The position numbers were made by a program, and so were the translations under genes. The notes beneath the pieces were generated by a model that saw only the letters and a list, made by a program, of their open reading frames with translations, searched no databases and was not told the DNA's origin. A stretch of DNA of 64,000 nt, from sequence record NC_052656.1. One strand, given 5' to 3'. The first letter of the stretch is position 1. Every line of letters starts with the position of its first letter. Below, one piece after another: positions 204 through 62,229 of this stretch. This DNA comes from Escherichia phage anhysbys.

Positions 204-704
204 TTAGTTGTAAGCATCTAAAGTTCCAGAAGTCAGAACTTTAATTACTCGTTCAGCACGGTTTGGCGTCTGGCTATACCATCGGCTTTTACGCATGTTT
301 TTACCTGCTTGAGTATAATATGCATTGCTGATTAAAGTCAAGCTATTTTGAAACCCTTCAGCACCTTTTAACCCCAACTGGAAAACCATGTTGATTATTC
401 CCAATTTACGAGTATCACTAACCTTATCATAGATTGGTGATAAGATAGTACTGTTTTTTATGTCTCTCTTCACTTTTGCAACATCGTCAGCAAAGATTTG
501 ACGGGCTTCTTTTTCTGTGATAACTCCATTAGTCTTACGACCAAGAAGATTATCTAAGATTTGAATAGCCTTTGCTTTATCTTTTATTTTAGTCAGAAGG
601 TGTCCTATGCCGACTGTCCAATAACCAAGATGGTCTTGATAAACAGTAAGCTTCAGTCCTTCATCGACTCGTAGCATATCAAACTCATCTACTACTTTAG
701 CCAT
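204..704 (-). CDS. endolysin, T4-type lysozyme (glycoside hydrolase family 24)
   Basis: 166 aa; N-terminus [30 protein letters not shown] closely parallels T4 lysozyme [30 protein letters not shown], including the catalytic Glu/Asp/Thr positions. Confidence 0.9.
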   Translation of the reverse strand: [166 protein letters not shown]

Positions 705-3370: not shown

Positions 3371-4455
3371 TAGAAGTCAAGCTCCTCATCATCAGAGAGA
3401 TCTTTGTTAGCTGAATTCAATTTGTAATTAGTTAACTGAATCTCTTGGGCTGCTGACTGAATCAAATCAGGATTCAACCATTTTTCCATCCAAGCTAAAG
3501 GACTATGTTTAGGTGCTTTAAACTTGGCTTTCATTTTCAATCGACGATAAATAGGAGCAGCATTGAAATAAACCCACTGTTTAGACAATTCGGCGTTAAG
3601 ACCTACAATAAAACGACCTTCACTAAACAGGTAGTCACACCACTGTTCCTCTTGTTCAACAACAGTGTCGAGGATCAAAGTCAACTCTTCAATATTGTCT
3701 TCGTAAATTTTACGCCAAATTGGGTCATGCATCAATGCATCAATTACAGCATAATCCATCTTAACATGCAAGATTTCATCTAGCATAATTTTCTGGATCA
3801 GCTTACAAGCCCCAACAAACAATTGTTGTTCTGCCATAGCAAAAGTAGCAGAGAAGGAAGATATAAACTGAATACCTTCTAATCCAATCAGGGCTACCAT
3901 CCCTTTAAGAATCAGCAATCGAAGTTCATCGTTAGCTTCAATCAATCCTAGAGCATACTTATGACCAGCTTCTTCCAACTGACCCATGATATCAGCAATG
4001 ATACCCATACGATTGAAAATTTTATCATTAATCATAATCTGATTGATGACTTCAATTGGATCTGGAGTACATTGACGGATTATTTCAGAATACGTTAACG
4101 CATGGAGAACTTCCATTTCACTCTGCTTCATCATCATAGCACAGGCTTCATTGTTACTCAAGAATGGAGAGAACAAAGTGATGATTGATTTTGCAAGAGA
4201 ATCATTTTCCCATTGGAACGATAAGTTTTTAATCATAACATCATAGTTGTTTTTAGAACAAGCTACGAAATCTTTACGTGTCTGATCCAAGTTAACTTCG
4301 TTTTCATCCCAATCTTGTGCTTTTTGAAGTTTGTAGAGTTTGTGCATTTCTGGATAAGTTACGTTAACAGAATCAAAGATCCCTAATTGCTCCCCCAAAA
4401 ATACTGGATATTTTCCTGTTTTGTAAACTTCGTTGTGTAAATTAATTGCTGCCAT
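3370..4455 (-). CDS. nrdB: ribonucleotide reductase class Ia small subunit (NrdB)
   Basis: 361 aa, ferritin-like helical protein directly downstream of nrdA; typical size and architecture; uninterrupted (no intron). Confidence 0.85.
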   Translation of the reverse strand: MAAINLHNEVYKTGKYPVFLGEQLGIFDSVNVTYPEMHKLYKLQKAQDWDENEVNLDQTRKDFVACSKNNYDVMIKNLSFQWENDSLAKSIITLFSPFLSNNEACAMMMKQSEMEVLHALTYSEIIRQCTPDPIEVINQIMINDKIFNRMGIIADIMGQLEEAGHKYALGLIEANDELRLLILKGMVALIGLEGIQFISSFSATFAMAEQQLFVGACKLIQKIMLDEILHVKMDYAVIDALMHDPIWRKIYEDNIEELTLILDTVVEQEEQWCDYLFSEGRFIVGLNAELSKQWVYFNAAPIYRRLKMKAKFKAPKHSPLAWMEKWLNPDLIQSAAQEIQLTNYKLNSANKDLSDDEELDF

Positions 4456-14659: not shown

Positions 14660-14842
14660 TTATTTAAAATAGCTTTCTAGAAAGTTGCTAATATTTACTA
14701 CAGTCTCACCCATGTAAATTCCTGCGAAACCGAAAACAAGCATACGTGGAATATTGAAATACCATTTATCCGCCGGAAAAGATGCCAGAATTACAATAGC
14801 AATTGCTATCAACATCATAAGAATTGTTGCTAAAATTATCAT
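14660..14842 (-). CDS. small membrane protein (60 aa, two hydrophobic segments)
   Basis: ATG at 14842 with GGAGG 7 nt upstream; ATGA overlap with upstream ORF stop. Confidence 0.35.
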   Translation of the reverse strand: MIILATILMMLIAIAIVILASFPADKWYFNIPRMLVFGFAGIYMGETVVNISNFLESYFK

Positions 14843-26005: not shown

Positions 26006-26176
26006 ATGCGCAATTTTGTAGTTAAAAATGATTTTAACCGTTCTTCTTATCATAAAGATAAAAAGAATGATTACACACGGGCTTGGAACTTGGAGGAAGA
26101 ACTTTATGATGACAGAGAAGACGTGGGAAGAGATCCTAGCGGAGGCTCAACCGATGGAAGTGAAGAAGATAGTTAA
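26006..26176 (+). CDS. small hypothetical protein (56 aa)
   Basis: ATG with strong GAGGAGG RBS 7 nt upstream; competes with overlapping ORF-track entry 26028-26243 (RBS-supported internal start at 26106). Confidence 0.3.
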   Translation: MRNFVVKNDFNRSSYHKDKKNDYTRAWNLEEELYDDREDVGRDPSGGSTDGSEEDS

Positions 26177-26226
26177 CAACGCCCCTTCTCTTCCTAAAAT
26201 AAAATTTTATGAGGAAGTAGAAGATA

Positions 26227-26613
26227 ATGAATCTAAAGACTAAAACTGTATTAAGTTTTGTTTTAATTGTTATTCTTGCAGGAATGTTTGCTTATAACAA
26301 GATACGTGAGTCTGGCTACAAAGATGGTGTTGCCTATCAAACACAAGTATATCAAGCAGCCCAAGCAAAAGCAAAACAAGATTTTGATGTTCTTCAAAAA
26401 AGAGCAGATGAAGAAAGAGCATTATTAAATACTCAAATAAACAACTTGTCTAAAAACAATGCACAATTAAAAGCAGATTTAGAGAAGAAGAAACAAACGA
26501 TCAATGAGGATACAACGAATTATGCAAAAACTAATTCTGGCAGTATGTCTTGCTTTGCCCCTAATGATGACGGGTTGTTCATCATCAACAAAAGTTTCCC
26601 CAGTTCTTATTGA
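26227..26613 (+). CDS. i-spanin (Rz-like): N-terminal TM anchor plus periplasmic coiled coil
   Basis: TM segment VLSFVLIVILAGMFAY followed by K/Q/A-rich coiled coil; o-spanin ORF begins inside its 3' end in another frame. Confidence 0.55.
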   Translation: MNLKTKTVLSFVLIVILAGMFAYNKIRESGYKDGVAYQTQVYQAAQAKAKQDFDVLQKRADEERALLNTQINNLSKNNAQLKADLEKKKQTINEDTTNYAKTNSGSMSCFAPNDDGLFIINKSFPSSY

Positions 26614-26848
26614 TGAGTGTAAGGCTGTAGCCATAGAAAAGGTTAAAGGTCCAGATTCGGACTTGATGGATAAAGTATCGACACCTGTGCCATACACTAA
26701 AAATCAAATTGCAAAAGGGGTTAGTAGATCTGAAGTTGTTAACAACCAAACTCAAAACAATGCTCTTTGGGAGCAAGATAGACGAAAGGTTCTAGGTTTA
26801 CAAACATATATTAAAACACTGCAAGAAAAAGGTATTATTGCTGAATAA
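26522..26848 (+). CDS. o-spanin (Rz1-like outer-membrane lipoprotein), start overlapping i-spanin gene
   Basis: signal peptide ending in lipobox-like LMMTGC; start could also be the upstream in-frame ATG at 26504. Confidence 0.55.
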   Translation: MQKLILAVCLALPLMMTGCSSSTKVSPVLIDECKAVAIEKVKGPDSDLMDKVSTPVPYTKNQIAKGVSRSEVVNNQTQNNALWEQDRRKVLGLQTYIKTLQEKGIIAE

Positions 26849-26857
26849 GGAGGGAAT

Positions 26858-28933
26858 GTGGCAAAGAAAAAGGCAGCAGGTAGTTTAGCTGGAGTAGATA
26901 TTGAAGTAAAGGCTCAACCAGGTAAACAGACTCTTGCAATGGATTTAATGCCAGAAGTTATGATTTATGGTGGTGCCGCTGGATGTGTTTCTGCTGAAAC
27001 GGAATATCTTACAAAAGATGGTTGGAGGCAGATTAGTGAATATTCGGGAGAGGATATTTACCAATATAATCCTAAGAATAAGCGTTTAGAATTGGTAACA
27101 CCTTATTTTGTAGAATACGATTTAAATGGAGATAACCTATACAGAATAACAAATGGTGTAGGATTATTCCAAGAACTTAGTATGGAACACCGTTTTGTAT
27201 TCTATAAGAAAAAGAAATCAAAGAAACATTTCGAGATTCTTGTAGGAGATCTTATTGCATTACAGCAAATAGGAAAACCCCTGCAAGGTTATGTAGAAAA
27301 TCCATTCGGTAAACGTGTTCCTTTTAACATACCTGGTAAAAAGAGCACTTACTTAAAAATACACGAGGTTATTTCAACAGATGATAAGAAATATTGTTTT
27401 GAGACTCCAAGCAGCTATATTGTCTTTAGACGTGGCGATCACTGCTTCGTTACTGGGAATAGCGGCAAGTCTCGTCTGCTATTGCTGAAAGCTTTAAAAT
27501 ACGCCTACAAAGACCCTTTGTTTGGTGGAATACTTTTCCGTAAGAACACCACTGCTCACCGTAAACCAGGTGGTCTGTTTACAGAAGCAAAACGTTTGTA
27601 TCTTCCTTTACAACCACACGTAAAAGAAAGTACAATGGATATCATTTTTGAAGCCACTGGTGGTGGAACCCTCAAATTTGACCATTTGGAAAATGATAAC
27701 GTAACAGCAGAAACAAACCATCAGGGTACCCAGTATTCAATGGTAGGTTTTGACGAGTTAACCCACTTCACACAATATGAAATGCTATATCTTCTGGGAC
27801 GTATGCGTTCAGAGTCAGAAACAAGTTTCATGTTGTGCACATGTAACCCTGACGCAGATAGTTGGGTTTTGAATTGGGTGTTACCTTATCTTGATGAGGG
27901 TGGTTATCCTAGAGAAGATATGTGTGGTAAACAAAAATATTTCATCATTGTTAACGATGAACCTGTTTTTGCTGACACACCTGAAGAACTGAAAGAAAAA
28001 TATCCAGAAAACTGTTTCATGGAAAACCCTAATACAGGGGAGACAGTTGTTATTGAACCACAAACTTTCGTATTTATTGGTGGGACAATATTTGATAACC
28101 CAGAACTCATTAGGCTTAACCCTAATTACTTAGCACAGCTTAAATCACAAACAGCGATCAAAAGAGCACAGCTTCTGGACGGTTGTTGGTTTGCACGTAT
28201 CCAGAAAGAATCTTTCTTTCAACGTGAATGGTTACATAAAATATCTTATAAAGATGTTCCTAACAATCTTAAACTAATGCGAGCATGGGATAAAGCTGTT
28301 TCAGTTCCTACAGAAACTTACCGTTATCCAGACTATACAACATCTGTCAAAATGGGTAAAGATCAAGATGGTAATATCTACATCTTTGGCGACTATGATT
28401 ATGATGCTGTGGATGAGAAAAGTAAAATTTTCGGAAGGTTTCGAAGACTACCTGGGGAAAGGGATAACCTGATTCTAAATCAATGTAAGATTGATGGACC
28501 AGAAGTTACAGTAGTGCTTCCTAAAGACCCATCTGGTGCTGGGACAATAGAATACACAGAGTCTGCAAAGAAACTTATTCTAGAAGGTTTTGTTGTTAAA
28601 CCAGATGCTATGCCAGGTAACAAGAAAAAGCTTCAGCGTTTTATGCCTTTTAGTAGTGCGTGTCAAAACGGTTTTGTTTATATTGTTGAAGATTCTTTCC
28701 CTAATGTGGAAACTTTAACCCACTTTTATAAAGAATTGGAATCTTTCAATGGTGAAAGATCTACAGCCACTATTAAAGATGACATTCCCGATGCTGCTGC
28801 CTCTTGTTTTAATACTCTGTCAAAAGAGAATACTTTCAAAGCAGTAGCTATCCCTACAACAACAAATGCTCCTACAGGATACAGTAGAATGAACAGCGGA
28901 TTTCACCAGCCGTATAGTGTCCGTAAAAGATAA
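26858..28933 (+). CDS. terminase large subunit (TerL), interrupted by an in-frame mini-intein
   Basis: GTG start after AGGAGG; Walker B MVGFDELTHF, coupling motif LCTCNPD, nuclease Asp motifs GDYDYD / VLPKDPSGAG; Walker A is split as ...IYGGAAG | 159 aa | SGKSRLL. Confidence 0.85.
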   Translation: MAKKKAAGSLAGVDIEVKAQPGKQTLAMDLMPEVMIYGGAAGCVSAETEYLTKDGWRQISEYSGEDIYQYNPKNKRLELVTPYFVEYDLNGDNLYRITNGVGLFQELSMEHRFVFYKKKKSKKHFEILVGDLIALQQIGKPLQGYVENPFGKRVPFNIPGKKSTYLKIHEVISTDDKKYCFETPSSYIVFRRGDHCFVTGNSGKSRLLLLKALKYAYKDPLFGGILFRKNTTAHRKPGGLFTEAKRLYLPLQPHVKESTMDIIFEATGGGTLKFDHLENDNVTAETNHQGTQYSMVGFDELTHFTQYEMLYLLGRMRSESETSFMLCTCNPDADSWVLNWVLPYLDEGGYPREDMCGKQKYFIIVNDEPVFADTPEELKEKYPENCFMENPNTGETVVIEPQTFVFIGGTIFDNPELIRLNPNYLAQLKSQTAIKRAQLLDGCWFARIQKESFFQREWLHKISYKDVPNNLKLMRAWDKAVSVPTETYRYPDYTTSVKMGKDQDGNIYIFGDYDYDAVDEKSKIFGRFRRLPGERDNLILNQCKIDGPEVTVVLPKDPSGAGTIEYTESAKKLILEGFVVKPDAMPGNKKKLQRFMPFSSACQNGFVYIVEDSFPNVETLTHFYKELESFNGERSTATIKDDIPDAAASCFNTLSKENTFKAVAIPTTTNAPTGYSRMNSGFHQPYSVRKR
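26984..27460 (+). mobile_element. mini-intein (Hint domain only, no homing-endonuclease domain) in the TerL P-loop
   Basis: 159 aa starting Cys (CVSAETEYLTKDG, block-A-like), ending ...FVTGN followed by Ser +1; SMEH as block-B-like SxxH; excision restores the P-loop GAAGSGKS. Confidence 0.6.
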
Positions 28934-50188: not shown

Positions 50189-52264
50189 ATGTCAACTACA
50201 ATTACTAATTTACCCGAAACATCAAAAGTTAATGATTCTGATTACCTGGTTTTAGACCAACCTGATAAGACTGTTAAAAGCACAGTTTCCAACTTTCTTA
50301 CTGACACTGGGGTGGTTTTAGCCACCCAGTTGAAAGATACAGATGGAGCAGATATGATCGGGGTTCCAACAACAGAAACTTCTTTGGGGGAATTGCTTTC
50401 ATCTGATGATATGGCCATCAAATATAGTTATGTCAACCCAACAATCAGTGAAAGGCTTGGGCGTGAAGGGGCGAAGGTTGTTTTGGTCGGCGACAGTCTG
50501 AGCAGTTTCTTCAACATAGATTCTGTAAACACAGCGTCTATCTTTGAGTCTTACCTGCGCCGCAAGATCATGGAATTCAACAGTACGGCGAAGTTCTATA
50601 ACAGAGCCATCGGCGGCAAGCGTTACTATGACTTGGGTAGAAATGAACCGCCTCTTAATGCTCTGAAGAGCGGATACCCTTGGTATACAGACACGTCCAA
50701 GCGTTGGATGACTTACTTGGACGATCTTAAACCAGATGTGATCTTCTTGGCCTTTGGTATGAACGATGGCGCTGGCTGGGACGTGGGTAACTTTCAACAA
50801 GATAACTTCTTCAAGATGATGGAAGAACTTAAGTCCATCAGTTCAAGCCCTGAGTTGGTGTTTTGTACTAATATTCTTCCTTCTACAACACATGTTGATA
50901 CCGCAACAGAAGACCAGCAGCAGGGGCGTGATGCGATGGCTGGCTGGACAAGAAGTTTTGCCAGAAAGGCGGGATATAGCTTCCTTGATCTTCATAGACG
51001 TTTCAAATGCTTACGTGATGGTGTAGACCCGTGCATGGCTAGTTATGCCCGTAAAACCATTCAGAAAGTGGTGTCGCTTCCGTATGTACACACCGCCCAG
51101 TGTGATATGTATTCGGCTCGGGTAATTTTGATCGATCCAGCCGTCGCGACCACAGGTATTAGATTCCAGTTGTCGAAGTATTCTAACAACTTCATGACCT
51201 TGAAATACGATACCACGACATCGCGCTGGATAACGACCGCATATACAGCTTCTTTCTCTTCCGTTGGCATCGCTGATCAGAGTTCTATGCCTGGCCCAGC
51301 CCCGGCTGAGGGAACAGAGATATACTTCACCATGAACGGTGACGTTGTCGTAATAACCATCGGCATCAACACATATCCGGTGTTCAGCCGTAATATTGTG
51401 CGCTTCGGTGGTAAATTCTTCCCTCAAATCGGCGGAACTGGTGATATTCGGATTGACATGATTGAGGGTACACCTATCCCTGTTAAATCAGAGTTGACGG
51501 ATTATGATTGCTACAACACTGACGGCGATGGCGGGAATGGCATCAACCACCCAACAGCCAAAGCGAGTTCCCGAATTTATACTCGCGTTGTTGACGACTG
51601 GTTCAGTATGTTTGCTGGGTCTGTTAGTTCCAGAAAGCAGGTGCTGGACATTGACTTTGTCAACGGCACTGTTGTGGTGAGAAACCCGTATAGCCCAGAA
51701 CTATCTTGTGAAGACAAAATCAGCGCCGCCCTGACTTTTATCAACGGATCACTCGCATACCAACGCGACGCTCAGGGACGTGTCATTGGAGCGGTGTTTG
51801 GGGCTACGAACAGAGCGTATGTTGACCAGGCTTTCTTCAATGCTTATGCGGGGAATTACAGCCAGCTCACATTTGAAGTAGAGTTCGTTGCCCCGAGCGC
51901 CCAGGCATACATCTGCACGTTCGGGGAAAACACCACAAGTGACCGAATCATAGCTCAGGTCACAAGTGATTTACGCCCAAGAATCACGGCAGCCGTGGCA
52001 TCACAAGCCAGCGACCTTTTCGGTTCAGCTTCGTTCCCATTTGTTGCTGGACGGAAATACGCTTTGAAATTCTCTTTAGATTGTGAGAATTCGGTCGCGC
52101 AGATGTGGGGGCAGAACAACTCCGCGCGAGGTAACATCAACGTCACCCCTATAACCGCCATATCTCCGGCGACGCTATCCAAGCTGAAACTTGGTTATGC
52201 GTCAACTGGAACATTTGGTGTAGATGTCGTGGTTTCAAGAATCAGAGTCTGGTTCTCCAACTGA
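50189..52264 (+). CDS. tail fibre/spike with SGNH (GDSL) hydrolase domain (candidate surface-polysaccharide esterase/deacetylase)
   Basis: 691 aa; block I VVLVGDSLSSFF, block III GMNDGAGW; AT-rich N-terminal ~80 codons, GC-rich remainder. Confidence 0.6.
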   Translation: MSTTITNLPETSKVNDSDYLVLDQPDKTVKSTVSNFLTDTGVVLATQLKDTDGADMIGVPTTETSLGELLSSDDMAIKYSYVNPTISERLGREGAKVVLVGDSLSSFFNIDSVNTASIFESYLRRKIMEFNSTAKFYNRAIGGKRYYDLGRNEPPLNALKSGYPWYTDTSKRWMTYLDDLKPDVIFLAFGMNDGAGWDVGNFQQDNFFKMMEELKSISSSPELVFCTNILPSTTHVDTATEDQQQGRDAMAGWTRSFARKAGYSFLDLHRRFKCLRDGVDPCMASYARKTIQKVVSLPYVHTAQCDMYSARVILIDPAVATTGIRFQLSKYSNNFMTLKYDTTTSRWITTAYTASFSSVGIADQSSMPGPAPAEGTEIYFTMNGDVVVITIGINTYPVFSRNIVRFGGKFFPQIGGTGDIRIDMIEGTPIPVKSELTDYDCYNTDGDGGNGINHPTAKASSRIYTRVVDDWFSMFAGSVSSRKQVLDIDFVNGTVVVRNPYSPELSCEDKISAALTFINGSLAYQRDAQGRVIGAVFGATNRAYVDQAFFNAYAGNYSQLTFEVEFVAPSAQAYICTFGENTTSDRIIAQVTSDLRPRITAAVASQASDLFGSASFPFVAGRKYALKFSLDCENSVAQMWGQNNSARGNINVTPITAISPATLSKLKLGYASTGTFGVDVVVSRIRVWFSN

Positions 52265-52276
52265 CGGAGTCTTTAA

Positions 52277-52405
52277 TGAATATTGACATATCTCCTATTC
52301 TTCACACCCTGGTCGCTACCACCCTGCAAGCAATTGCGGGGTTACTCCTGGGAGACTGGGTGATCGGAGCAGTGATGGGTTGTACGTTCTTCGCCGCCCT
52401 TTAAT
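52277..52405 (+). CDS. small hydrophobic peptide (42 aa), GC-rich
   Basis: ATG with GGAG 8 nt upstream; single predicted TM helix; GC-rich codons unlike surrounding phage genes. Confidence 0.3.
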
Positions 52406-52430
52406 TCCTGTCGGCGCTATTGATAGGCAT

Positions 52431-52453
52431 CCCCGCTTCGGCGGGGTGTTTTA
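52431..52453 (+). terminator. intrinsic terminator
   Basis: CCCCGC-TTCG-GCGGGG followed by TGTTTT. Confidence 0.7.
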
Positions 52454-52477
52454 AAACTACAACATGAGGACTAACCC

Positions 52478-52786
52478 ATGAATAAGATGTTCACACAGCC
52501 CACTGGCCCAGTGGCTAAACAGGTTAATAAACAAGGCATTGCCCGTAAGTTTGGTGTTAAACAATCTGAGGTTGTTTACTTCTCAGTTGGTGTGGATTTG
52601 GGTGGGTATAAGGTTATCTATGATAAGGAGACGCAAAGGGCGTATTCCCTACCTGCTGATATTGCCCCAGGTACTACTGCCATTAATCTTAGTGCTGCCG
52701 GAGTATTAGTTCACTCTGCGGGTAATGTGGACCTTGGGGAATTAGCTGCATATCGTGATTTAAAAAGTAATGAGAACGCACTATGA
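52478..52786 (+). CDS. hypothetical protein
   Basis: 102-aa ORF; ATGA overlap with downstream membrane protein gene. Confidence 0.4.
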   Translation: MNKMFTQPTGPVAKQVNKQGIARKFGVKQSEVVYFSVGVDLGGYKVIYDKETQRAYSLPADIAPGTTAINLSAAGVLVHSAGNVDLGELAAYRDLKSNENAL

Positions 52787-53025
52787 GAAAATTTTTAATA
52801 GGTATGTTCTGTACATATCCTGATAATAAAGTCAGTTCTACGAAAGTCTGGAACGCTGTAGGCATGTCGGTTATGACAGGCATGTTTATCTTTTTAGGAA
52901 TAGAAAAAGAAATTCCTGAATGGATGGGTTGGGCTTTTGTTTTCATGATAACTCCTTCTCGCCTCATGAAAAATCTTATTGATTTACGCTGGGGCAGATC
53001 ACAATCTACCAAAGAGGATGACTAA
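52783..53025 (+). CDS. holin-like small membrane protein (two TM segments, charged C-terminus)
   Basis: 80 aa; hydrophobic stretches VWNAVGMSVMTGMFIFLGI and WMGWAFVFMITPS, C-terminus RWGRSQSTKEDD. Confidence 0.4.
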   Translation: MRKFLIGMFCTYPDNKVSSTKVWNAVGMSVMTGMFIFLGIEKEIPEWMGWAFVFMITPSRLMKNLIDLRWGRSQSTKEDD

Positions 53026-54512
53026 TGGACGAATATGGTTTGACAGATGCGGGATTTGTAATCCCGACTTTTGACGATGTTTTAAACAACTACATGACAG
53101 CAGTAAAAAACACATTTGGTGCAGATGCAGCCACTTCGGAAGATACTGTGATCGGACAACTGTTTAGAATAATTGCATACACAGATTACACATTGTGGGA
53201 AGGTATGCAAGGTGTTTATAATACTCAAACACTGGATGGTGCAGAAGGTATTTATCTTGACGAAATCTTTTCTAAACGCGGTTTCTATCGAGCAGGGGCA
53301 GCAGCAAGTACAGGTTATGCCTATGTTAAGAGTAATAACAAAGCAGCTTGGACTTATGAGTTAGGCACGGATATTTACTTCAACTCTGATAGTGATATGA
53401 ACTACTATGTTAGCACACCAACTATGTTGAATGCTAAGATTGCAGCTTATCAAATCTCTCGTGCTAATGCAACTGCTACAGGTGTTCCAAATATTACTTT
53501 TTATGCACAAAGTGCGGTGGATGGGGGACTAAACAGTAAAACACTTGCACCTGGTTCTTCTACATTTATAACCGATCTTGAAACTTTTATCAAGGCGAAT
53601 TTAACAGAAGCTGATCGTAGTCTTGTATTTTCTGATTCAGGTAACTTATCAATTGGTTTTACTTCTTTAACCAGCGATACTCCAGTGGGACTAGTAACTC
53701 CTATCAAATTTTATGCCAGTGTTCCAGTTGGAACCAAATGGAGTGAAATTCCAGTAGTTGCAGCAGAGAAAGGATACAATCCTGTTGGTGTGGAGTCTAT
53801 TACAGGGATATCTTCTACCTTTACAGGTTATCTTGACAGTGGTAACTTTTATTCATTTTCTCCTGGTCGGGATGTTGAGACAGACGCAGAATTCCGCTCT
53901 CGTTTCAATGACAACGTTGATGAAGCTAACGCAGGGACACGAGCAGCTATTGTGAAAGCTCTGTTACTTACAGATGGTGTCACTAAGGTGAAGATTTATG
54001 ATAACCCTACGTTACATGATCAAGAACACGCTCCAGCTATGACTTTCCAGACTATAGTTTATGGTGGCAGTGCAGAAGAAATTGCAAATGTTATCTATAA
54101 AACCAAACCAATCAACACTTTGACACACGGAACAACTAACATAACAGTTACAACAGAAGATGGAGGACAAGAAATTATTCGCTTCTCTCCTGGTGCTTCT
54201 GCTATGTATTCCGTAAAACTTGTTTATCAAACTGTCAACGGAACAACTTTAAGTGGAACAGAAAAACAAAACATCGTAGAAGCTTTACAAAACCTGCAAG
54301 CTTACTTTGAGTTAGGTTCTTCAGTAACGAACGATCAAATCAAAGGTGTTATTTACGCAGCACTTGCTTTTGGACGCTTGACTTCTCTTCGTGTTTATGT
54401 TAAACTTAATACTGAGGATGACAGTAAATATACAGAGAATAATATAATTCCTGCTTATAATGTTGTCCCTTCTTTTGACCTTGATAACATTTCTTACGAG
54501 TATGGAGTGTAA
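53025..54512 (+). CDS. baseplate J-like protein (putative)
   Basis: 495 aa; position and size; weak N-terminal resemblance to baseplate J family. Confidence 0.4.
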   Translation: MDEYGLTDAGFVIPTFDDVLNNYMTAVKNTFGADAATSEDTVIGQLFRIIAYTDYTLWEGMQGVYNTQTLDGAEGIYLDEIFSKRGFYRAGAAASTGYAYVKSNNKAAWTYELGTDIYFNSDSDMNYYVSTPTMLNAKIAAYQISRANATATGVPNITFYAQSAVDGGLNSKTLAPGSSTFITDLETFIKANLTEADRSLVFSDSGNLSIGFTSLTSDTPVGLVTPIKFYASVPVGTKWSEIPVVAAEKGYNPVGVESITGISSTFTGYLDSGNFYSFSPGRDVETDAEFRSRFNDNVDEANAGTRAAIVKALLLTDGVTKVKIYDNPTLHDQEHAPAMTFQTIVYGGSAEEIANVIYKTKPINTLTHGTTNITVTTEDGGQEIIRFSPGASAMYSVKLVYQTVNGTTLSGTEKQNIVEALQNLQAYFELGSSVTNDQIKGVIYAALAFGRLTSLRVYVKLNTEDDSKYTENNIIPAYNVVPSFDLDNISYEYGV

Positions 54513-54514
54513 AA

Positions 54515-55144
54515 ATGGCAGTGAGTGTTGACCATGTAACAACTTGGGCCAGTATCAATGAAGATGTTAAAAACCTTCTGATTGAAGATTTTAAATCTTC
54601 TCCTAACATTGTCAAACTCCTCTACATCGTATCCAGTGAAAAGCAAAAGATAGATCAGGCAATGATCTATCTTGCTAAACACCGCTTGATCTCTACAGCC
54701 ACAGGCAAATACCTAGATATCCTAGGGGAAGAAATGGGGATCGAACGTAATGGCTCTGATGATGAAGAGTATAGAACAATATTAAAAATCAGGGCTTACC
54801 GCGTAGCCTCGTCGGGGACTCGTGGTGACATAATTGATATCTTCGCCCGTTTCACAGGAACAGAGCGTGAAACGCTTAATACCTATGTAGGTTTGAATAA
54901 AACCTTTGACGTGTTTTTCTACAACCTGTGTCTTCAATCTGATCAAGCTTTAGAACAGTTGCTAAGTGTTTTTCCTATTATTAGCAGCTACCGTCTTGGA
55001 GCAAAAGCAGGATCAGCTTTTGGTTTTAGTTCTTATTATGCTACCAAACCGCCTCATGGTATTGGTGGTTTAGGTTCCCTGTACATGGAATCTACTGGGG
55101 ATGAAACAGGACGCATGTGTACGCTTCTCAAGCAAATAGATTAA
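54515..55144 (+). CDS. baseplate/tail protein (putative)
   Basis: 209-aa ORF following J-like gene. Confidence 0.4.
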   Translation: MAVSVDHVTTWASINEDVKNLLIEDFKSSPNIVKLLYIVSSEKQKIDQAMIYLAKHRLISTATGKYLDILGEEMGIERNGSDDEEYRTILKIRAYRVASSGTRGDIIDIFARFTGTERETLNTYVGLNKTFDVFFYNLCLQSDQALEQLLSVFPIISSYRLGAKAGSAFGFSSYYATKPPHGIGGLGSLYMESTGDETGRMCTLLKQID

Positions 55145-56200: not shown

Positions 56201-56740
56201 ATGAATATTGTTTACGATGGTTTTGAACTATATACTCCAGAACCTAATGAAGATACGCTCTTTTTAATTGGTTTAGGGGTAGGATTTTTAAGAGATTCCT
56301 CTGGCAGGGATTGGTATGATTTGTCGAAAGAGTTAGATGCTAAGTATCCTGATGCATATTTTGTTAGTTTAAATACTGATAACTTAGTCTTAGGTGTAGG
56401 GGAAGATGCAGTAGGATTATTCCCCCACAATATGCGTGTTGTTGTTACAGATAGTGTTCCAAAAGGTATGACCGAATATCCAAGACAATGGAGATATAAC
56501 GGAACAACTTTTGAAAAACATAATACTTGGACACAAGAAGATGTGGATACCACGTTAGAGACAGAATTGACGTGGGCTGGAAACCAAATAGGTGCTTTGA
56601 CAGATTTGCAAGAGTTACAAGGTCTGTCAGAGGAACAAGAAAAATGGTTAAAAGCTGTTAAGTTATATCGAGCATCTTTAGTTCTATTAGATCTGAAAGA
56701 CTTGAACAACATTCAATGGCCTGATAGACCTACTCAGTAA
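56201..56740 (+). CDS. tail fibre assembly chaperone (Tfa-like)
   Basis: 179 aa directly after fibre gene; C-terminal ...NNIQWPDRPTQ resembles the conserved Tfa C-terminus. Confidence 0.5.
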   Translation: MNIVYDGFELYTPEPNEDTLFLIGLGVGFLRDSSGRDWYDLSKELDAKYPDAYFVSLNTDNLVLGVGEDAVGLFPHNMRVVVTDSVPKGMTEYPRQWRYNGTTFEKHNTWTQEDVDTTLETELTWAGNQIGALTDLQELQGLSEEQEKWLKAVKLYRASLVLLDLKDLNNIQWPDRPTQ

Positions 56741-56750
56741 GGGATACAGT

Positions 56751-57086
56751 ATGGAATTTCAAGAAGCATGGGGACTTGCCAAGGATGCAATTATCCCTTT
56801 AATCGGAGTCATCTGGTTCTTTTTCAAACAAAAAATGGATAAATTCGGCTCTGATCTTGAGGAAATGGAGGAGAAAAGTCGAGAGCTAGAGAAGAAGTTG
56901 GTTTTTGTTGAATCAACTTATGCAACTAAAGCCGAACTTACCCAGATGCTAAATCAAATTAACTCTACATTAATGGCAAATAATAACACTCTTGAGCAAA
57001 AAATTGAAAAGATTATGGACCTCAAGAATGCGACTATTCAAATGATGCTAGATGACATAGTTAAACGTACACAGAATAAGGGGTAA
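56751..57086 (+). CDS. small coiled-coil/membrane-anchored protein
   Basis: 111 aa; N-terminal hydrophobic segment then coiled coil. Confidence 0.4.
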   Translation: MEFQEAWGLAKDAIIPLIGVIWFFFKQKMDKFGSDLEEMEEKSRELEKKLVFVESTYATKAELTQMLNQINSTLMANNNTLEQKIEKIMDLKNATIQMMLDDIVKRTQNKG

Positions 57087-57089
57087 TTA

Positions 57090-60000
57090 ATGGCAACATT
57101 CCCAACATATCCAGCAACGTCTCTTGAACAGGGCGTAGATCTGGTTATTTTCTCGTCTAACCAACTCCATGATGTTATTAATGGAAGTGCTACAGAGAGT
57201 ATTGAAACAGAATCAGGGTTGATACCAACCCTTAGAAAAGCCCTTGTTGACAACTTCTTTTTTAAGAGTCCCTTGGATTGGGCGCAAGGCACGAATGAAA
57301 CAGTTTTTAACCAACTTCGCTATTTCCAGAATGGAGTGTTGAGTGGTTATTACTATGCGCCTAATGCTACACTGGTAAACCCTATCCCTATGCAAGGTAC
57401 TCCAGTAGGGGATAATAACTGGGTATTGTGGGGACTGAAGACAGAACAATTAGCAACAGAAGTCACCCCTTGGGTATATTCTGGTGCAACTGGTTATGAA
57501 ACAGTAATCAGCCCTCCCTACATCTTTGATAGTGCTATTGTTACGATCAATGGTGTTATTCAGGTTCTGGGAGAAGCTTTCCGCATAGAAGATAGTAAAA
57601 TCATCTTATCTGAACCTTTGGGACATGATCCTGCAACAGGACTACCAAACAAGCTTTTTGCTTATATTGGTAAAATCGTAGCTTCCGCAGATACAGATCC
57701 TAACCTAGAGAACCGTCTTGTCAGTTTAGAAACAAAAACCGAAGAACTGACAGAAAGTATGGATAAAGTTCCGCTGCAAACCATTGCTCGTAAGTATGGT
57801 TTGTTAGACGATGAGGTAGCTTATGCTACAGTAGGACAGTCTTTAACAGGTATTAAAGCTCTGTATGATCCGGTAGCACAGTCTTCCTACACATTACCTC
57901 CTAGCATCACAGGAACTTTAACATCCTTATCTGTTTCTGGAGTAATGACTTATTCTGGAGGATCTGTAGACCTTTCTGCACTGGCTGTTGAGCGTGGACA
58001 GTTTGTTCATTTGCCTACAAGCTTTGGTAATAACGTAACTCTGACAGCTAAAAATCAGACGATTGGACGTGGTGCTGGTCGTTATCGTTGGGCTGGAAGT
58101 TTACCAAAAAGCATTTTGGCCTCTGATACATTGGAGACAAGCGGTGGATTAGGTCCAAATGCATGGGTTCTGACCAATACAGAAGGACTGTTAACTCCTC
58201 GTGGTGGAACATACAACGATTTATTCGATGTTGTCTACTTGTCAGAATTTGCTAACAACACAACAACATATACCACACCAGAAGCAGCTTTCCAAGCGGC
58301 ACTGTTAGCAGCAAAAGCTTCGAAAAGCAAGATTCTCGATGCTTACGGTTGCGATATGACTTTCACGACAAGCTCTTTTGATATTCAAGGTATCACTTTG
58401 CGTGGGGGTGTGTTCCGTGGTCAACGCGACTATCGTGTGCAAAATGCTACAGTAGAAGGCACAACTTTCCGTAACTCTCGTGTTATGTATTGGGGTGGTG
58501 CTGTGCGCATGTTCGATTGTTTGTGGGACGGTGCTCCTCGCGCAGGTCAAGTTGGTAGCTTGGTATTCCAAGGCAACCCAATATCAGGTACTTTTGAAAT
58601 TGATAACTGTACTTTTAAAAACGGGTTGTATGGCATCCTTCAACAAGGAACAGGAGAACCAGTAACACGTGGTGTCTTCCGTAACCTTACCTTCATGGAC
58701 ATGCAAGGTGATGCAATAGAACTGAACGTCATCAATAAACATTATGACGATGGTTGTGTGATTGAGAATATTTACCTGTCTAATATCGATGGAACTAATG
58801 CTCCTATTCCTCTGTCGAACTGGGGTATCGGTATCGGTGTAGCTGGTAAAGGACCATATGGTTACGGAATCCCTGATGATCAATATTGTAAGAATATTAC
58901 AATTCGTAACGTTTTTGCAAAACGTTGCCGTCAAATTGTCCACGTAGAAGTTGGTCGTAATATTTCTATCGAAAACATTCATGGCGATCCAGATCAAACC
59001 GTATCTGTTGGGACAGGTTTGGCAACTGGCGCAGTTGTAATGTATGGAAGTAAAGACTTTACGATTGATGGTGTTTATGGAGAGCCTAAAACAGATGGTA
59101 GCACACTTGCAAGTAATATCCGTATGATTTACTTGGAGTGGGGAACTAACGCAGTTCTGGATGAAGAGGGTAATCCGGTAGTTCCGGCACAGGGCAGACC
59201 TTCAAATCCATGCTTTAACTATTCTGTTCGTAACATTCACACCAAAACTGGGCGTGTTTTTGCGGGAGTTTCCGCTGGGCCAGGTTATGAAAACAGAGTT
59301 AGCTTTGAAAATATTCGTTGCGCTGCATTGCAGTTGTTCGGTATAGCTTCTTGGCTTTCAATGTCTAACATCACTTGTAATATCTTCGATTGTGTTGGTC
59401 AACCTGAATCTGGTCCAGGGACATTTTATGATGGATTCTTCCGTAGAGAAAAATCTGTTCTTGAAATGGTTAACGTAAACTGTTACCCAGATGGCAAGAC
59501 GATGGTTACTGGTCGTCCACAGTGGAGCCGTTGCCGTTACTCTGATATTCATCGTGTCAACTGTAATGTTGAAGCTAATATGTATACCAATATCGCAGGT
59601 GGTATTGGAGCTATCGTAGGAACAACGGGCAAAGTTTATTACTTAGAGCCTAATCCTAGTCGAAACATTGATGGAATGCATTTCCCAACAGGGAAAGAGT
59701 TTGACAAAGGTGATATGATAGTCAAGGCGGATAATACGTTCTTCCTTGTGACAACAAGTGGGGCATATATTCCAGATATCCCAGCTTTCGGTATTCGAGC
59801 TACACAGGCAGGAGATACCTTCCTGACACAGAACTTGACTCCTAACGGGACAGCAACAAATGCTTCTTGGTTGTATCATTACCCTCTGTCAGCAGGGACA
59901 CGTATCCGTATTCCTGGTGCTGGTGTAGGTGGAGCAGATTTGGACACAGTTATTACTCGTGCGCCTTATCAAGATAATGATACGTGGACTAACCCAGTTA

Positions 60001-60143
60001 AAATAGACATTGCAGATCCAATTGTAACGCCTACAAGTGCTGGAGTTAGAATTAAAACCATACCTAATGATTCCAGTAATGTTTCTGTAGGTAATACTGC
60101 GGTTATTCGCCCAACGCCAGTAGTAGATGTGCCAACAACCTAA
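57090..60143 (+). CDS. tailspike with parallel beta-helix (pectate-lyase-like) domain
   Basis: 1017 aa; repeated N/G-x-hydrophobic rungs (NITIRNVFAKRCRQIVHVEVGRNISIENIHGD, RNSRVMYWGGAVRMFDC). Confidence 0.5.
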   Translation: MATFPTYPATSLEQGVDLVIFSSNQLHDVINGSATESIETESGLIPTLRKALVDNFFFKSPLDWAQGTNETVFNQLRYFQNGVLSGYYYAPNATLVNPIPMQGTPVGDNNWVLWGLKTEQLATEVTPWVYSGATGYETVISPPYIFDSAIVTINGVIQVLGEAFRIEDSKIILSEPLGHDPATGLPNKLFAYIGKIVASADTDPNLENRLVSLETKTEELTESMDKVPLQTIARKYGLLDDEVAYATVGQSLTGIKALYDPVAQSSYTLPPSITGTLTSLSVSGVMTYSGGSVDLSALAVERGQFVHLPTSFGNNVTLTAKNQTIGRGAGRYRWAGSLPKSILASDTLETSGGLGPNAWVLTNTEGLLTPRGGTYNDLFDVVYLSEFANNTTTYTTPEAAFQAALLAAKASKSKILDAYGCDMTFTTSSFDIQGITLRGGVFRGQRDYRVQNATVEGTTFRNSRVMYWGGAVRMFDCLWDGAPRAGQVGSLVFQGNPISGTFEIDNCTFKNGLYGILQQGTGEPVTRGVFRNLTFMDMQGDAIELNVINKHYDDGCVIENIYLSNIDGTNAPIPLSNWGIGIGVAGKGPYGYGIPDDQYCKNITIRNVFAKRCRQIVHVEVGRNISIENIHGDPDQTVSVGTGLATGAVVMYGSKDFTIDGVYGEPKTDGSTLASNIRMIYLEWGTNAVLDEEGNPVVPAQGRPSNPCFNYSVRNIHTKTGRVFAGVSAGPGYENRVSFENIRCAALQLFGIASWLSMSNITCNIFDCVGQPESGPGTFYDGFFRREKSVLEMVNVNCYPDGKTMVTGRPQWSRCRYSDIHRVNCNVEANMYTNIAGGIGAIVGTTGKVYYLEPNPSRNIDGMHFPTGKEFDKGDMIVKADNTFFLVTTSGAYIPDIPAFGIRATQAGDTFLTQNLTPNGTATNASWLYHYPLSAGTRIRIPGAGVGGADLDTVITRAPYQDNDTWTNPVKIDIADPIVTPTSAGVRIKTIPNDSSNVSVGNTAVIRPTPVVDVPTT

Positions 60144-60204: not shown

Positions 60205-62229
60205 ATGAATTTAACAAGACCTAATAGTGCGATAGCCGATCTGGTAGAAGCTACTTATCGAAAACGTCGCAGCTTTGAGGCAGGTTTTACATTACGTAAT
60301 TCCCGTGAAGTTTTGCTGTTAGCAGCAGAAGGGAATTATTACCAATGGAAAGGAACTTTTCCTAAAATAGTTCCAGCAAACTCTACGCCAGCCACCACAG
60401 GTGGTATTTCTTCCCTTGCATGGCAAAATGTTGGGACCGCTGATGATATAGCAATTATCAATGCCAAGTTTACGGCAGTGCAGCAACAGATTGATGATCT
60501 GTCGGAAACAATACCTGAAGCTGGTAAATCGGCTTATCAGATCGCACTTGATAATGGTTTTGTTGGAACAGAAGCACAATGGCTTGCTTCTTTGAAAGGG
60601 GATACTGGTGCTCAACTTAATATTAAAGGATCATTAGCAAGCACTAGTGAACTACCATCCACAGGTAACGTTGCAGGGGATGGTTATATCGTAGGTGATG
60701 TAATCTACGCTTGGGATGGTTCTGTTTGGAAACTTATTTCTTCTCTTGGGCCAGAAGGTAAATCAGCTTACGAGGTATGGTTGGCAGATGGTAATACAGG
60801 ATCTGTTTATGATTTTCTTACCTCTATAAAAGGTGATAAAGGAGATGTTGGTCCTACAGGGCCACAGGGAGCACCTGGTGTTAACGCCAACGGTTTTGAT
60901 TATCGTGGAGATTTGCCTTCTACAAGTAACTTACCACAACCTAACTCTGAAAACGTAAGCCAAGCTTATTCTATCAGTGGTAATCTTTATGTCTCTAATG
61001 GGACAGCTTGGGTCAACATGGGTAATATTGTTGGTCCTCAAGGTCCACAAGGTGAGGCAGGTAAAGACGGTCTTGATGGAACAGATGGAGATGAAGGGAA
61101 ATCTGCATATCAAAGTTGGCTGGATGCTGGTAATGAAGGGACAGAAGTAGATTTTATTGCTTCCTTAAAAGGAGAGAAGGGTGACAAAGGTGAGAAGGGC
61201 GATCCTGGTCCACAAGGTGAACAGGGTGTTCAGGGTATCCAAGGTCCGGTTGGTGCAGGTCTTTCTGTAAATGGTGAATTGTCAGATGTTTCAGAACTAC
61301 CTTCTGTAGCGGAGGTTGGTGATGCCTACGTTGTAAAAAATGATCTTTACGTGTGGATCGACGACAATCAAACGTGGCTCAATGTAGGTAGTTTGGGTGG
61401 TAGATCTATTACAGCTAAAGGTCATGTTGCAAATGGAGAAGCTCTCCCTGTTTATAATAATTATGGTGATGCCTATTTAACTGAAGACACCAGTAATCTT
61501 TACATCTATACCTACGATCAAGACACCAATTCCGCATCTTTTGTTGACATGGGAAGTATTAAAGGCGACAAAGGTGAAAAAGGGGATAAAGGAGATAAGG
61601 GTGATCCTGGAACAAACGGAACCAACGGTACTGATGGGACCAACGGTAAGGACGGCGCACAGTGGTTTGTAGCAACAACTAATCCAGTCGCAGGAGACGG
61701 TGCTATCAATGATTACGCCTTCAATACTACCACTGGAGCAGTGTTCAAGAAAACAGATTCTTCTACTTGGACACTTATAGGAACTCTTCCTAGTATACCA
61801 GAAGCCCCTCAAGACGGCTTGACGTATGGTCGTTCTGATGGGAACTGGATTGAAATATCAGGATCAGATCCTACGGAAGCTATAACACCAACTAGAGTTA
61901 CAGCAGGTTTCATGGAACTTGAAACAACTACTGCCAACTCTGGAGCATCTTGGACTCCTTCTGGAACTTCCAATATGTATGTTGTTACAGTAACCGATGC
62001 TTTAACAGTTGGAGCATGGCCTGGTGTCACTGGCTCTACAAAACCTAAAGCATTTTCAGCAATGATTTATTTGATTCAAGATACAACGGGACACACGGTT
62101 ACACTAGATGCGTCTTATGGAGCACTGAATGATACAGAAATAGCAACTACTGCTAACGCAGTAACAATTTTGCAATTAACGTATCCTGGTGTGGGTAATA
62201 TCGTGGACATGGTTGTTGTAACACGATAA
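60205..62229 (+). CDS. tail fibre with collagen-like Gly-X-Y repeats and repeated ~30-aa modules
   Basis: 674 aa; GDKGDVGPTGPQGAPG, GEKGDKGEKGDPGPQGEQGVQGIQGPVG, GDKGEKGDKGDKGDPGTNGTNGTDGTNGKDG; three copies of GKSAY(Q/E)xWLxxG...SLKG module. Confidence 0.6.
   Translation: MNLTRPNSAIADLVEATYRKRRSFEAGFTLRNSREVLLLAAEGNYYQWKGTFPKIVPANSTPATTGGISSLAWQNVGTADDIAIINAKFTAVQQQIDDLSETIPEAGKSAYQIALDNGFVGTEAQWLASLKGDTGAQLNIKGSLASTSELPSTGNVAGDGYIVGDVIYAWDGSVWKLISSLGPEGKSAYEVWLADGNTGSVYDFLTSIKGDKGDVGPTGPQGAPGVNANGFDYRGDLPSTSNLPQPNSENVSQAYSISGNLYVSNGTAWVNMGNIVGPQGPQGEAGKDGLDGTDGDEGKSAYQSWLDAGNEGTEVDFIASLKGEKGDKGEKGDPGPQGEQGVQGIQGPVGAGLSVNGELSDVSELPSVAEVGDAYVVKNDLYVWIDDNQTWLNVGSLGGRSITAKGHVANGEALPVYNNYGDAYLTEDTSNLYIYTYDQDTNSASFVDMGSIKGDKGEKGDKGDKGDPGTNGTNGTDGTNGKDGAQWFVATTNPVAGDGAINDYAFNTTTGAVFKKTDSSTWTLIGTLPSIPEAPQDGLTYGRSDGNWIEISGSDPTEAITPTRVTAGFMELETTTANSGASWTPSGTSNMYVVTVTDALTVGAWPGVTGSTKPKAFSAMIYLIQDTTGHTVTLDASYGALNDTEIATTANAVTILQLTYPGVGNIVDMVVVTR

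Follow-up and report, generated by a model that had tools for sequence, protein, structure and literature searches.

Whether the small membrane protein encoded among the tail genes at positions 52478-53025 is a holin, and whether the open reading frame (ORF) coupled to it takes part in lysis, is the question raised by this locus of Escherichia phage anhysbys (NC_052656.1), of which a stretch of 64,000 nucleotides was analysed (the window). An earlier interpretation made from the letters alone (the sequence-only reading) had regarded the 80-amino acid (aa) product as the only holin-like protein and the preceding 102-aa ORF as a possible antiholin or lysis regulator. The 102-aa ORF (52478-52786, plus strand) and the 80-aa ORF (52783-53025, plus strand) are connected by an ATGA stop/start overlap, and the latter is in turn joined to the following gene, its stop codon sharing bases with that gene's ATG (TAATG at 53023-53027). 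The coordinates and the coupling given in the sequence-only reading proved exact, the ATGA junction being read directly from the sequence. As judged from sequence comparisons, both ORFs are real genes and not chance ORFs, which in the case of the 80-aa ORF is concluded from its homologues in 370 phage records (tblastn) and from a ratio of non-synonymous to synonymous differences (pN/pS) of ~0.15. The best explanation for the locus is that two unrelated items have been translationally coupled by happenstance. The 102-aa ORF is identified by homology as the isolated N-terminal D1 head of a tailspike of the CBA120/G7C type. The 80-aa ORF encodes a predicted inner-membrane protein, which by its class II shape is a candidate for the holin of this clade, with a probability of roughly 0.4.

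The window represents DNA of a Phapecoctavirus (phAPEC8/phi92-like, Stephanstirmvirinae, a myovirus of ~150 kb). The region 51500-54500 is 95-98% identical to many Phapecoctavirus genomes (megablast), and the window is colinear with positions 11958-76508 of Escherichia phage iGC_PHA_EC001 (OR437326), the sole break at 50353-52417 corresponding to a differing tailspike gene. The family of the 80-aa protein spans Phapecoctavirus, Justusliebigvirus (phi92 gp144), Aeromonas Plateaulakevirus and the Vequintavirinae, the latter with rV5 gp29 (ORF29), CR9 gp031 and members from Seunavirus, Mydovirus and Avunavirus. Identities reach up to 100% within the genus, 85% to phi92-like phages and 39% to rV5. 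The protein has no Pfam match, and an exhaustive HMMER search of 1.84 billion representatives returned just 15 clusters at 50% identity, all of them small proteins. The 80-aa gene is a core gene of the rV5/phi92/phAPEC8 super-clade under strong purifying selection; from the phi92-like orthologue it differs by 27 synonymous and 17 non-synonymous changes (pS 0.59, pN 0.09). The Phapecoctavirus genome encodes 19 small proteins that are membrane-bound or secreted, of which the 80-aa protein is the only one conserved in rV5.

The family alignment begins with a basic N-terminus and an S-H/S-T-K-x-W motif, followed by a first transmembrane segment (TM1), a short acidic loop with the invariant residues E46-W47, an aromatic Pro-containing second segment (TM2), an amphipathic L-R-W-G helix and a variable charged tail of 8-70 aa. 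From the two transmembrane segments claimed in the sequence-only reading, one stands as a clear transmembrane domain (TMD) at residues 22-40 (mean Kyte-Doolittle hydropathy, KD, 1.65), whereas the second one is weak and contains Pro. It was accepted mainly because AlphaFold2, run with the family alignment, returned a hairpin (helices 19-41 and 46-70 with a disordered tail, pLDDT 72) and because the segment is conserved. Summed over 17 members, the charges amount to +65/-30 in the N-terminus, +8/-28 in the loop, +43/-7 directly after TM2 and +59/-75 in the tail. The predicted topology is an inner-membrane hairpin with both termini inside (N-in/C-in). The charged C-terminus was found as claimed, in the form of a basic juxtamembrane helix and a subsequent charged tail. 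Holins are small proteins (~60-150 aa) with one or more TMDs, and those of class II, such as S21 of phage 21, possess two TMDs in the N-in/C-in orientation. Hence, the 80-aa protein has the shape of this class, i.e. small size, two predicted TMDs N-in/C-in and a charged C-terminus.

By the available evidence from relatives, the 80-aa protein is not a virion component. In the whole-virion cryo-electron microscopy (cryo-EM) study of phi92 from 2026, 'nearly all' components were assigned, among them the neighbouring gp143, gp145 and gp146, and gp144 is never mentioned (PMC13450770). The family profile matched no chain in the PDB, though entry 21vq holds phi92 gp145 and gp146. The virion proteome of rV5 contained no evidence for gp29 by mass spectrometry (MS), and MS of CB7 virions detected CB7_29-31 and CB7_36-37 and did not detect CB7_32-35, which include the orthologue CB7_35 as assigned from CR9 synteny; both cryo-EM and MS may fail to detect small membrane proteins. 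The sequence-only reading had named a virion role as the finding that would speak against a holin. With the protein missing from the phi92 cryo-EM study, the PDB and the MS data of rV5 and CB7, this objection did not materialize.

The 102-aa ORF aligns with residues 1-95 of CBA120 TSP1 (4OJ5) at E 6e-37 and ~75% identity, and it also matches the PDB entries 4QNL (G7C gp63.1), 5W6F, 6NW9, 5W6H and 9D84, with CBA120 TSP3 and TSP4 among the matched tailspikes. More than 20 tailspike PHROGs were matched, either at their first ~93 positions or internally at 328-420, with E values down to 2e-53. The ORF ends 8 residues past D1, and is thus devoid of the D2 domain, the neck, the catalytic beta-helix body and the C-terminal domain; correspondingly, no match to Pfam Tail_spike_N (D2) was obtained. 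The hydropathy of the translation revealed no hydrophobic segment or TMD. Antiholins or lysis regulators are membrane or periplasmic proteins (N-terminally extended holin isoforms or RI-like SAR/periplasmic proteins) that bind the holin or are related to it and are conserved along with it. The proposed role as antiholin or lysis regulator has to be abandoned, because the product has no TMD, is homologous to D1, and is missing or internally deleted in phages in which the 80-aa gene is intact.

The comparison of relatives further shows how this stub varies. It comprises 101-102 aa in the window phage, Ro121c4YLVW, iGC_PHA_EC001 and BME3, is shortened to 49 aa in KMB37 and UAB_1 by an in-frame deletion of residues 10-61 that eliminates the D1 core, and is absent from phAPEC8 and the phi92-like PATM, both of which keep the 80-aa gene. 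The codon alignment indicated a mosaic with a breakpoint near codon 23 (pN/pS 0.23-0.45). Codons 1-23 are identical to iGC_PHA_EC001 and saturated relative to Ro121 (pS 0.90), codons 24-102 have a pS of 0.33 to iGC_PHA_EC001, and the adjoining 80-aa gene is identical in all three phages. This mosaicism implies that the recombination boundary of an exchangeable receptor-binding cassette crosses the stub. Every stub variant keeps the frame open as far as the ATGA junction, and the stub-less relatives have an own Shine-Dalgarno (SD) sequence (AAGGA or GAGGT) in front of the 80-aa gene, from which we infer that selection acts on translational delivery downstream and not on the D1 fold. The stub, situated at the right-hand edge of the cassette, is thus probably what a decaying tailspike gene has left behind, and would now serve mainly as an upstream reading frame that supplies ribosomes to the next gene via ATGA. 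Its product may still dock, without a body, onto a gp10-like site, yet it is dispensable.

The D1 head of CBA120 TSP1 docks onto the T4-gp10-like XD3 domain of TSP4 (PMC8825819), and D1 alone gives this docking. In this regard, the stub product could act as a functional virion 'cap', a D1-only trimer filling the gp10-like (XD3-type) site without a full tailspike and thereby stabilising the adsorption apparatus. Such a cap would be in line with the wholly kept D1, the good SD sequence (GAGGA 8 nt upstream), the intact stub in many genomes with its low pN/pS, and the fact that it is the sole N-terminal D1 in the window, the copy in the colanidase being internal. We nevertheless regard it as unlikely, because phAPEC8 and PATM without the stub as well as KMB37 and UAB_1 with the 49-aa form are viable, and the low pN/pS might have been inherited from functional donor tailspikes through recombination, given that the stub is a mosaic. 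Moreover, it is unreported in the phi92 virion model, although phi92 itself may be stub-less.

The candidate holin has to be seen together with the other lysis genes of the window. The endolysin at 204-704 (minus strand) was verified as a full-length T4-lysozyme homologue, and the overlapping Rz/Rz1-type spanin pair at 26227-26848 upstream of the terminase gene was substantiated by its TMD, lipobox and PHROG matches. The sequence-only reading was also right in assuming a dispersed T4-like layout without a cassette, since endolysin, spanins and candidate holin are found at separate loci. All features of a two-component spanin are present (i-spanin with TMD and coiled coil, o-spanin with lipobox, overlapping genes), and the pair is situated directly upstream of the terminase gene at 26858. 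The spanin family of phi92/phAPEC8 has already been catalogued (PMC6139136), and the lack of a lysis cassette with spanins adjoining the terminase has been described for rV5, PVP-SE1 and CB7 (PMC3606486; PMC7344957). The endolysin has no hydrophobic N-terminus and no signal or signal-anchor-release (SAR) sequence; hence, it should need a canonical holin. As an aside, the PDB entry matched best by the endolysin was 'Artificial protein L056' (7RGR, E 1e-71) rather than T4 lysozyme; the first ~70 residues are identical, so that this designed protein is in essence a chimera derived from the natural lysozyme lineage seen here.

The view of the 80-aa ORF as the only holin-like ORF holds within the window if a charged C-terminus is required. 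However, the window has a second two-TM ORF, and the relative OR437326 has several more. The former, at 14660-14842 (minus strand), is besides the 80-aa ORF the sole small two-TM ORF of the window. It lies among replication and nucleotide-metabolism genes and encodes an extremely hydrophobic 60-aa protein (PHROG 19851, genus-specific) without a charged C-terminus. The small TM proteins of OR437326 were listed from a greedy gene call; the ten others of the relative genome matched no holin family and all fall into small genus-specific PHROGs, and elsewhere in this complete genome neither the annotation nor the searches revealed a recognised holin. Some further candidates were discarded. The holin proposed for rV5, gp129, has no homologue in the Phapecoctavirus genome or the window (E > 0.5) and can therefore not be the shared holin, no convincing TMD was seen in the ORFs located just before the spanin genes (26006-26243) or next to that of the endolysin (712-861), and the small ORFs beside a SleB-like hydrolase gene in the relative genome have no TMD. 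This second muralytic gene of the relatives, located outside the window (OR437326 91225-91746, minus strand), encodes a SleB-like Hydrolase_2 protein (PF07486), the N-terminus of which carries a hydrophobic segment resembling a signal or SAR sequence and which shares 35% identity with the rV5 counterpart; an export independent of a holin, if true, would change the lysis model for the clade. In rV5, ORF90 (72109-72315, plus strand; 68 aa with an annotated TM domain) is found directly downstream of the endolysin ORF89 and represents a positional holin candidate, which is not the one (gp129) put forward in the rV5 paper.

If the 80-aa protein is the holin, it would be made late together with the tail genes and build up in the inner membrane. 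At a critical concentration it would form holes that release the cytoplasmic T4-type endolysin, and the Rz/Rz1-type spanins would then disrupt the outer membrane. The whole would represent a T4-like scattered lysis system with the holin inside the tail-fibre gene block. The gene is placed inside the late structural block and coupled to baseplate genes, ~26 kb away from the spanins and ~52 kb from the endolysin, and late expression is likely from this position and the translational coupling. Several observations weigh against a holin, the first group of which concerns the protein itself. TM2 is weak and aromatic with a conserved Pro (mean KD 0.4-1.4 across the family), the C-terminal tail of the family is net acidic, and for rV5 gp29 TMHMM and Phobius listed no TMD. 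Searches of the protein and 17 family members yielded no Pfam, NCBIfam or PHROG 'lysis' match at E values up to 10; the lone match to a holin model was that of one among 17 members to Phage_holin_9 (E 0.13). A Foldseek search of the AlphaFold2 model against viral structures returned a family member as the only significant match and was uninformative, and the 'holin/antiholin' matches below (E 0.6-3.6) are noise as expected for a helical hairpin. A faint precomputed match of two family members to DUF2644 (best E 0.036, below the Pfam cut-off, without literature) was dismissed as a lead. The hand-curated BASEL records call the orthologue 'hypothetical protein'.

A second group of counter-arguments comes from genomic context and conservation. 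In none of nine lineages or contexts inspected does the 80-aa gene adjoin an endolysin or spanin gene, a linkage that holin genes usually show although it is not obligatory. Other candidates, which are lineage-specific, do stand beside muralytic genes, namely CB7_82, which overlaps a SleB-like gene (PMC7344957), and rV5 ORF90 directly after the endolysin; a further rival is a 73-aa protein of the phi92 gp184 family, encoded beside TerC outside the window and restricted to Stephanstirmvirinae. The 80-aa protein shares 39% identity with its rV5 counterpart compared to 33% for baseplate J, whereas for the T4L-type endolysin and the two spanins no counterpart was detected in rV5. Hence, the gene appears to travel with the tail module and not with the lysis genes. 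Such conservation would be unusual for holins and suggests a tail-linked role. Finally, the family always co-occurs with a second membrane protein encoded near the fibre chaperone gene.

This second protein, of 111 aa and related to rV5 gp31, consists of an N-terminal TMD and a long heptad-rich helix, and its gene follows the fibre-assembly gene. It was found in nine of nine contexts inspected along with the 80-aa family. The most divergent (metagenomic) phage displays the gene order J-like wedge, 102-aa gp31-like protein, 78-aa family member, 1878-aa fibre. The 111-aa protein has no PDB match, and gp149, its presumed phi92 number as derived from gene order, does not occur in the phi92 cryo-EM paper (PMC13450770). 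The label 'lipoprotein' used for it in relatives is wrong, because it contains neither Cys nor a lipobox.

Given this linkage, it is possible, though somewhat doubtful, that the 80-aa hairpin and the 111-aa protein form a non-virion inner-membrane morphogenesis factor for the tail-fibre/baseplate module, in which case the true holin would be encoded outside the window. The factor might, just as tentatively, be a platform or chaperone for the trimerisation or attachment of fibres, functionally resembling T4 gp57A, a small coiled-coil chaperone, but membrane-bound. The 80-aa gene is located in the baseplate/tail-fibre module of every lineage, beside changing fibre genes, is adjacent to the gp31-like gene in the most divergent phage, and is conserved like a gene of the structural module; as chaperones, its product is absent from virions, and the soluble parts of both proteins are predicted in the cytoplasm, where fibres assemble. 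However, a membrane-bound fibre chaperone of this kind is not generally known, homology to gp57A, TFA or another chaperone family is lacking, the parts which the 80-aa protein is predicted to expose to the cytoplasm are very short and differ among members, and the genome would still miss its holin. The same pair can be viewed more broadly, and with a little less confidence, as an undescribed clade-wide non-virion inner-membrane pair that is either such a fibre/baseplate platform or a holin-antiholin family of a new kind. In the latter version, the joint doubt applying to both, the pair would have been passed on vertically with the tail genes while endolysin and spanins were swapped.

A quite improbable alternative is that the 80-aa protein, which would be comparable to T4 Imm in size and topology or to HK97 gp15 in its location among tail genes, serves in superinfection exclusion or host takeover by blocking the DNA entry of related phages, and has been kept with the tail module since it acts on the cognate tail machinery. 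The PHROGs category of the family is 'moron, auxiliary metabolic gene and host takeover', and a small two-TM inner-membrane protein absent from virions would suit this function. Genes for small membrane or lipoprotein exclusion factors are commonly known to reside beside receptor-binding genes (T5 llp, cor, HK97 gp15), and the co-inheritance with the tail module fits a tail-specific target. Yet virulent phages need exclusion proteins early, whereas this gene is coupled within the late structural block with no own promoter detected. The usual hallmarks of morons, an own promoter and terminator and a patchy distribution, are lacking, and the occurrence of the family in phages of at least eight host genera speaks against the masking of a specific receptor, but is compatible with a block of injection. 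If the protein is not a holin, its strict linkage to the tail module, along with the second membrane protein, would suggest that tail-fibre assembly includes a membrane step so far unrecognised.

To our knowledge, no holin of the rV5/phi92/phAPEC8 super-clade has been experimentally identified. Phage-therapy and biocontrol cocktails make wide use of these broad-host-range myoviruses, and the published holin guesses differ by lineage (rV5 gp129, CB7_82 and two in BME3). The holin idea for the 80-aa gene and the dispersed layout are already in the literature. The BME3 paper described two small proteins with class II holin features, its table calling the 80-aa orthologue 'membrane protein/holin', and gave as the second candidate a 68-aa 'holin' adjoining a phosphatase and TerC, which belongs to the phi92 gp184 family mentioned above (PMC12210895). 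The BME3 GenBank record carries the same label for the orthologue. Annotations of other orthologues range over 'hypothetical', 'membrane protein', 'structural protein', 'holin' and a mistaken 'baseplate J-like'. For example, the 81-aa orthologue in Salmonella phage UAB_1 (retrieved stretch 3620-3865) is labelled 'putative baseplate J-like protein', and several other records read 'structural protein'; these labels appear to have spread from the neighbouring gene. The present study adds the identity and decay series of the stub, the evidence that the 80-aa protein is not part of the virion, and the pair of membrane proteins linked to the tail module. One small membrane protein alone is common to all these phages; by the evidence from relatives it is absent from virions, and its supposed partner proved to be a tailspike remnant, which narrows the experimental work required. 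Furthermore, the D1 stub provides a clean example of how the exchange of tailspike cassettes leaves scars which annotation pipelines call 'tail spike protein'.

The features of the window discussed here are compiled in Table 1.

Table 1. Position, strand and supporting matches of lysis-related, tail and cassette features in the window.
Feature	Position	Strand	Support
T4-lysozyme-type (GH24) cytoplasmic endolysin	204..704	-	Pfam PF00959; residues 7-165 vs T4L 3-161, E ~1e-47
i-spanin, N-terminal TMD and coiled coil	26227..26613	+	PHROG 4297, E 9e-33
o-spanin, lipobox LMMTGC, overlaps i-spanin gene	26504..26848	+	PHROG 1267, E 9e-21
Variable 691-aa GDSL/SGNH-esterase tailspike	50189..52264	+	Pfam Lipase_GDSL_2, E 4e-12, domain aa 97-274
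42-aa very hydrophobic ORF, between variable tailspike and terminator	52276..52404	+	PHROG 1443 positions 1-39 of 97, E 9e-11
Intrinsic-terminator-like hairpin	52431..52456 (hairpin 52431-52446)	+	CCCCGC-TTCG-GCGGGG then TGTTTTAAAA
102-aa orphan tailspike D1 (docking) domain	52478..52786	+	PDB and tailspike PHROG matches
80-aa inner-membrane hairpin protein (predicted), holin candidate	52783..53025	+	PHROG 1322 ('membrane protein'), E 2e-27
Baseplate wedge protein, Baseplate_J, phi92 gp145 orthologue	53025..54512	+	Pfam PF04865; PDB 21vq 'Phi92_gp145', E 7e-267
Baseplate wedge protein, phi92 gp146 orthologue	54515..55144	+	PDB 21vq 'Phi92_gp146', E 6e-121; PHROG 4056
Tail-fibre assembly chaperone	56201..56740	+	Pfam Caudo_TAP, E 3.5e-7
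111-aa membrane-anchored coiled-coil protein, rV5 gp31 family	56751..57086	+	PHROG 15210; remote PHROG 5345 (rV5 gp31 family), E 1e-4
Colanidase-type tailspike, 1017 aa, internal D1-D2 head aa 226-361	57090..60143	+	PDB and Pfam matches

Upstream of the stub, nucleotide homology to the closest relative is lost over the segment 50353-52417 and nowhere else in the window, so that the 691-aa tailspike represents the exchanged receptor-binding cassette and the D1 stub its right-hand border. The 691-aa protein of PATM is not homologous to this tailspike despite its equal length. The adjacent 42-aa ORF gave tblastn matches in lambdoid coliphages only; from its sequence, it appears to be the truncated remnant of a ~97-aa protein that follows lambdoid tail-fibre genes, i.e. 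a hitch-hiker in the imported cassette. The terminator-like hairpin sits between the variable tailspike cassette and the stub, and its sequence is conserved in iGC_PHA_EC001 (alignment). Downstream, the colanidase contains the only other D1 copy of the window (aa 226-302; 44% identity to the stub by BLASTP), followed by D2 (aa 302-361). A 674-aa fibre with collagen repeats (60205-62229, plus strand) shows the reverse of the D1-only stub, as Pfam Tail_spike_N (D2-like) was matched at aa 12-77 without a preceding D1.

The comparison with known systems places both products of the locus. The stub aligns over the full D1 of CBA120 TSP1-4 and G7C gp63.1, which possess D2, neck, beta-helix and C-terminal domain, all missing here; unlike these tailspikes, it is a stand-alone protein, the length of which changes from one close relative to the next (102, 101, 49 or 0 aa), and it occurs in an unrelated myovirus family. 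The phi92-like phage BME3 has the same arrangement, a 102-aa 'tail spike protein', an 81-aa gene and a 495-aa wedge, and phi92 gp144, rV5 gp29, CR9 gp031 and the BME3 orthologue belong to the same family in the same tail-module context. T4 Imm and HK97 gp15 are likewise small, non-virion inner-membrane proteins, HK97 gp15 even being encoded among tail genes. However, they are expressed early or from the prophage, while the 80-aa gene is embedded in the late structural block, and no common family was found, homology not having been compared directly. With class II holins, the 80-aa protein shares the size, the predicted two-helix N-in/C-in hairpin, the charged C-terminal tail, the late-gene position and the absence from virions. 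It differs from them by the lack of family similarity, the weak Pro-containing TM2, the acidic tail, the position never beside endolysin or spanin genes, the lack of a conserved dual-start motif (Met8 is Leu in most members) and the unusual conservation across subfamilies. The T4 system (e, t, pseT.3/pseT.2) resembles the present one in having endolysin, spanins and (putative) holin at three loci with the candidate in the tail-fibre block. T4 T is unrelated in sequence, with 218 aa, a single TMD and a large periplasmic domain, and the spanin genes here differ from those of T4 in that they overlap and abut the terminase gene. Finally, on the T4 map of Miller et al. 2003, t is reportedly situated directly downstream of the tail-fibre gene 38, which provides a precedent for a holin within a tail-fibre gene block.

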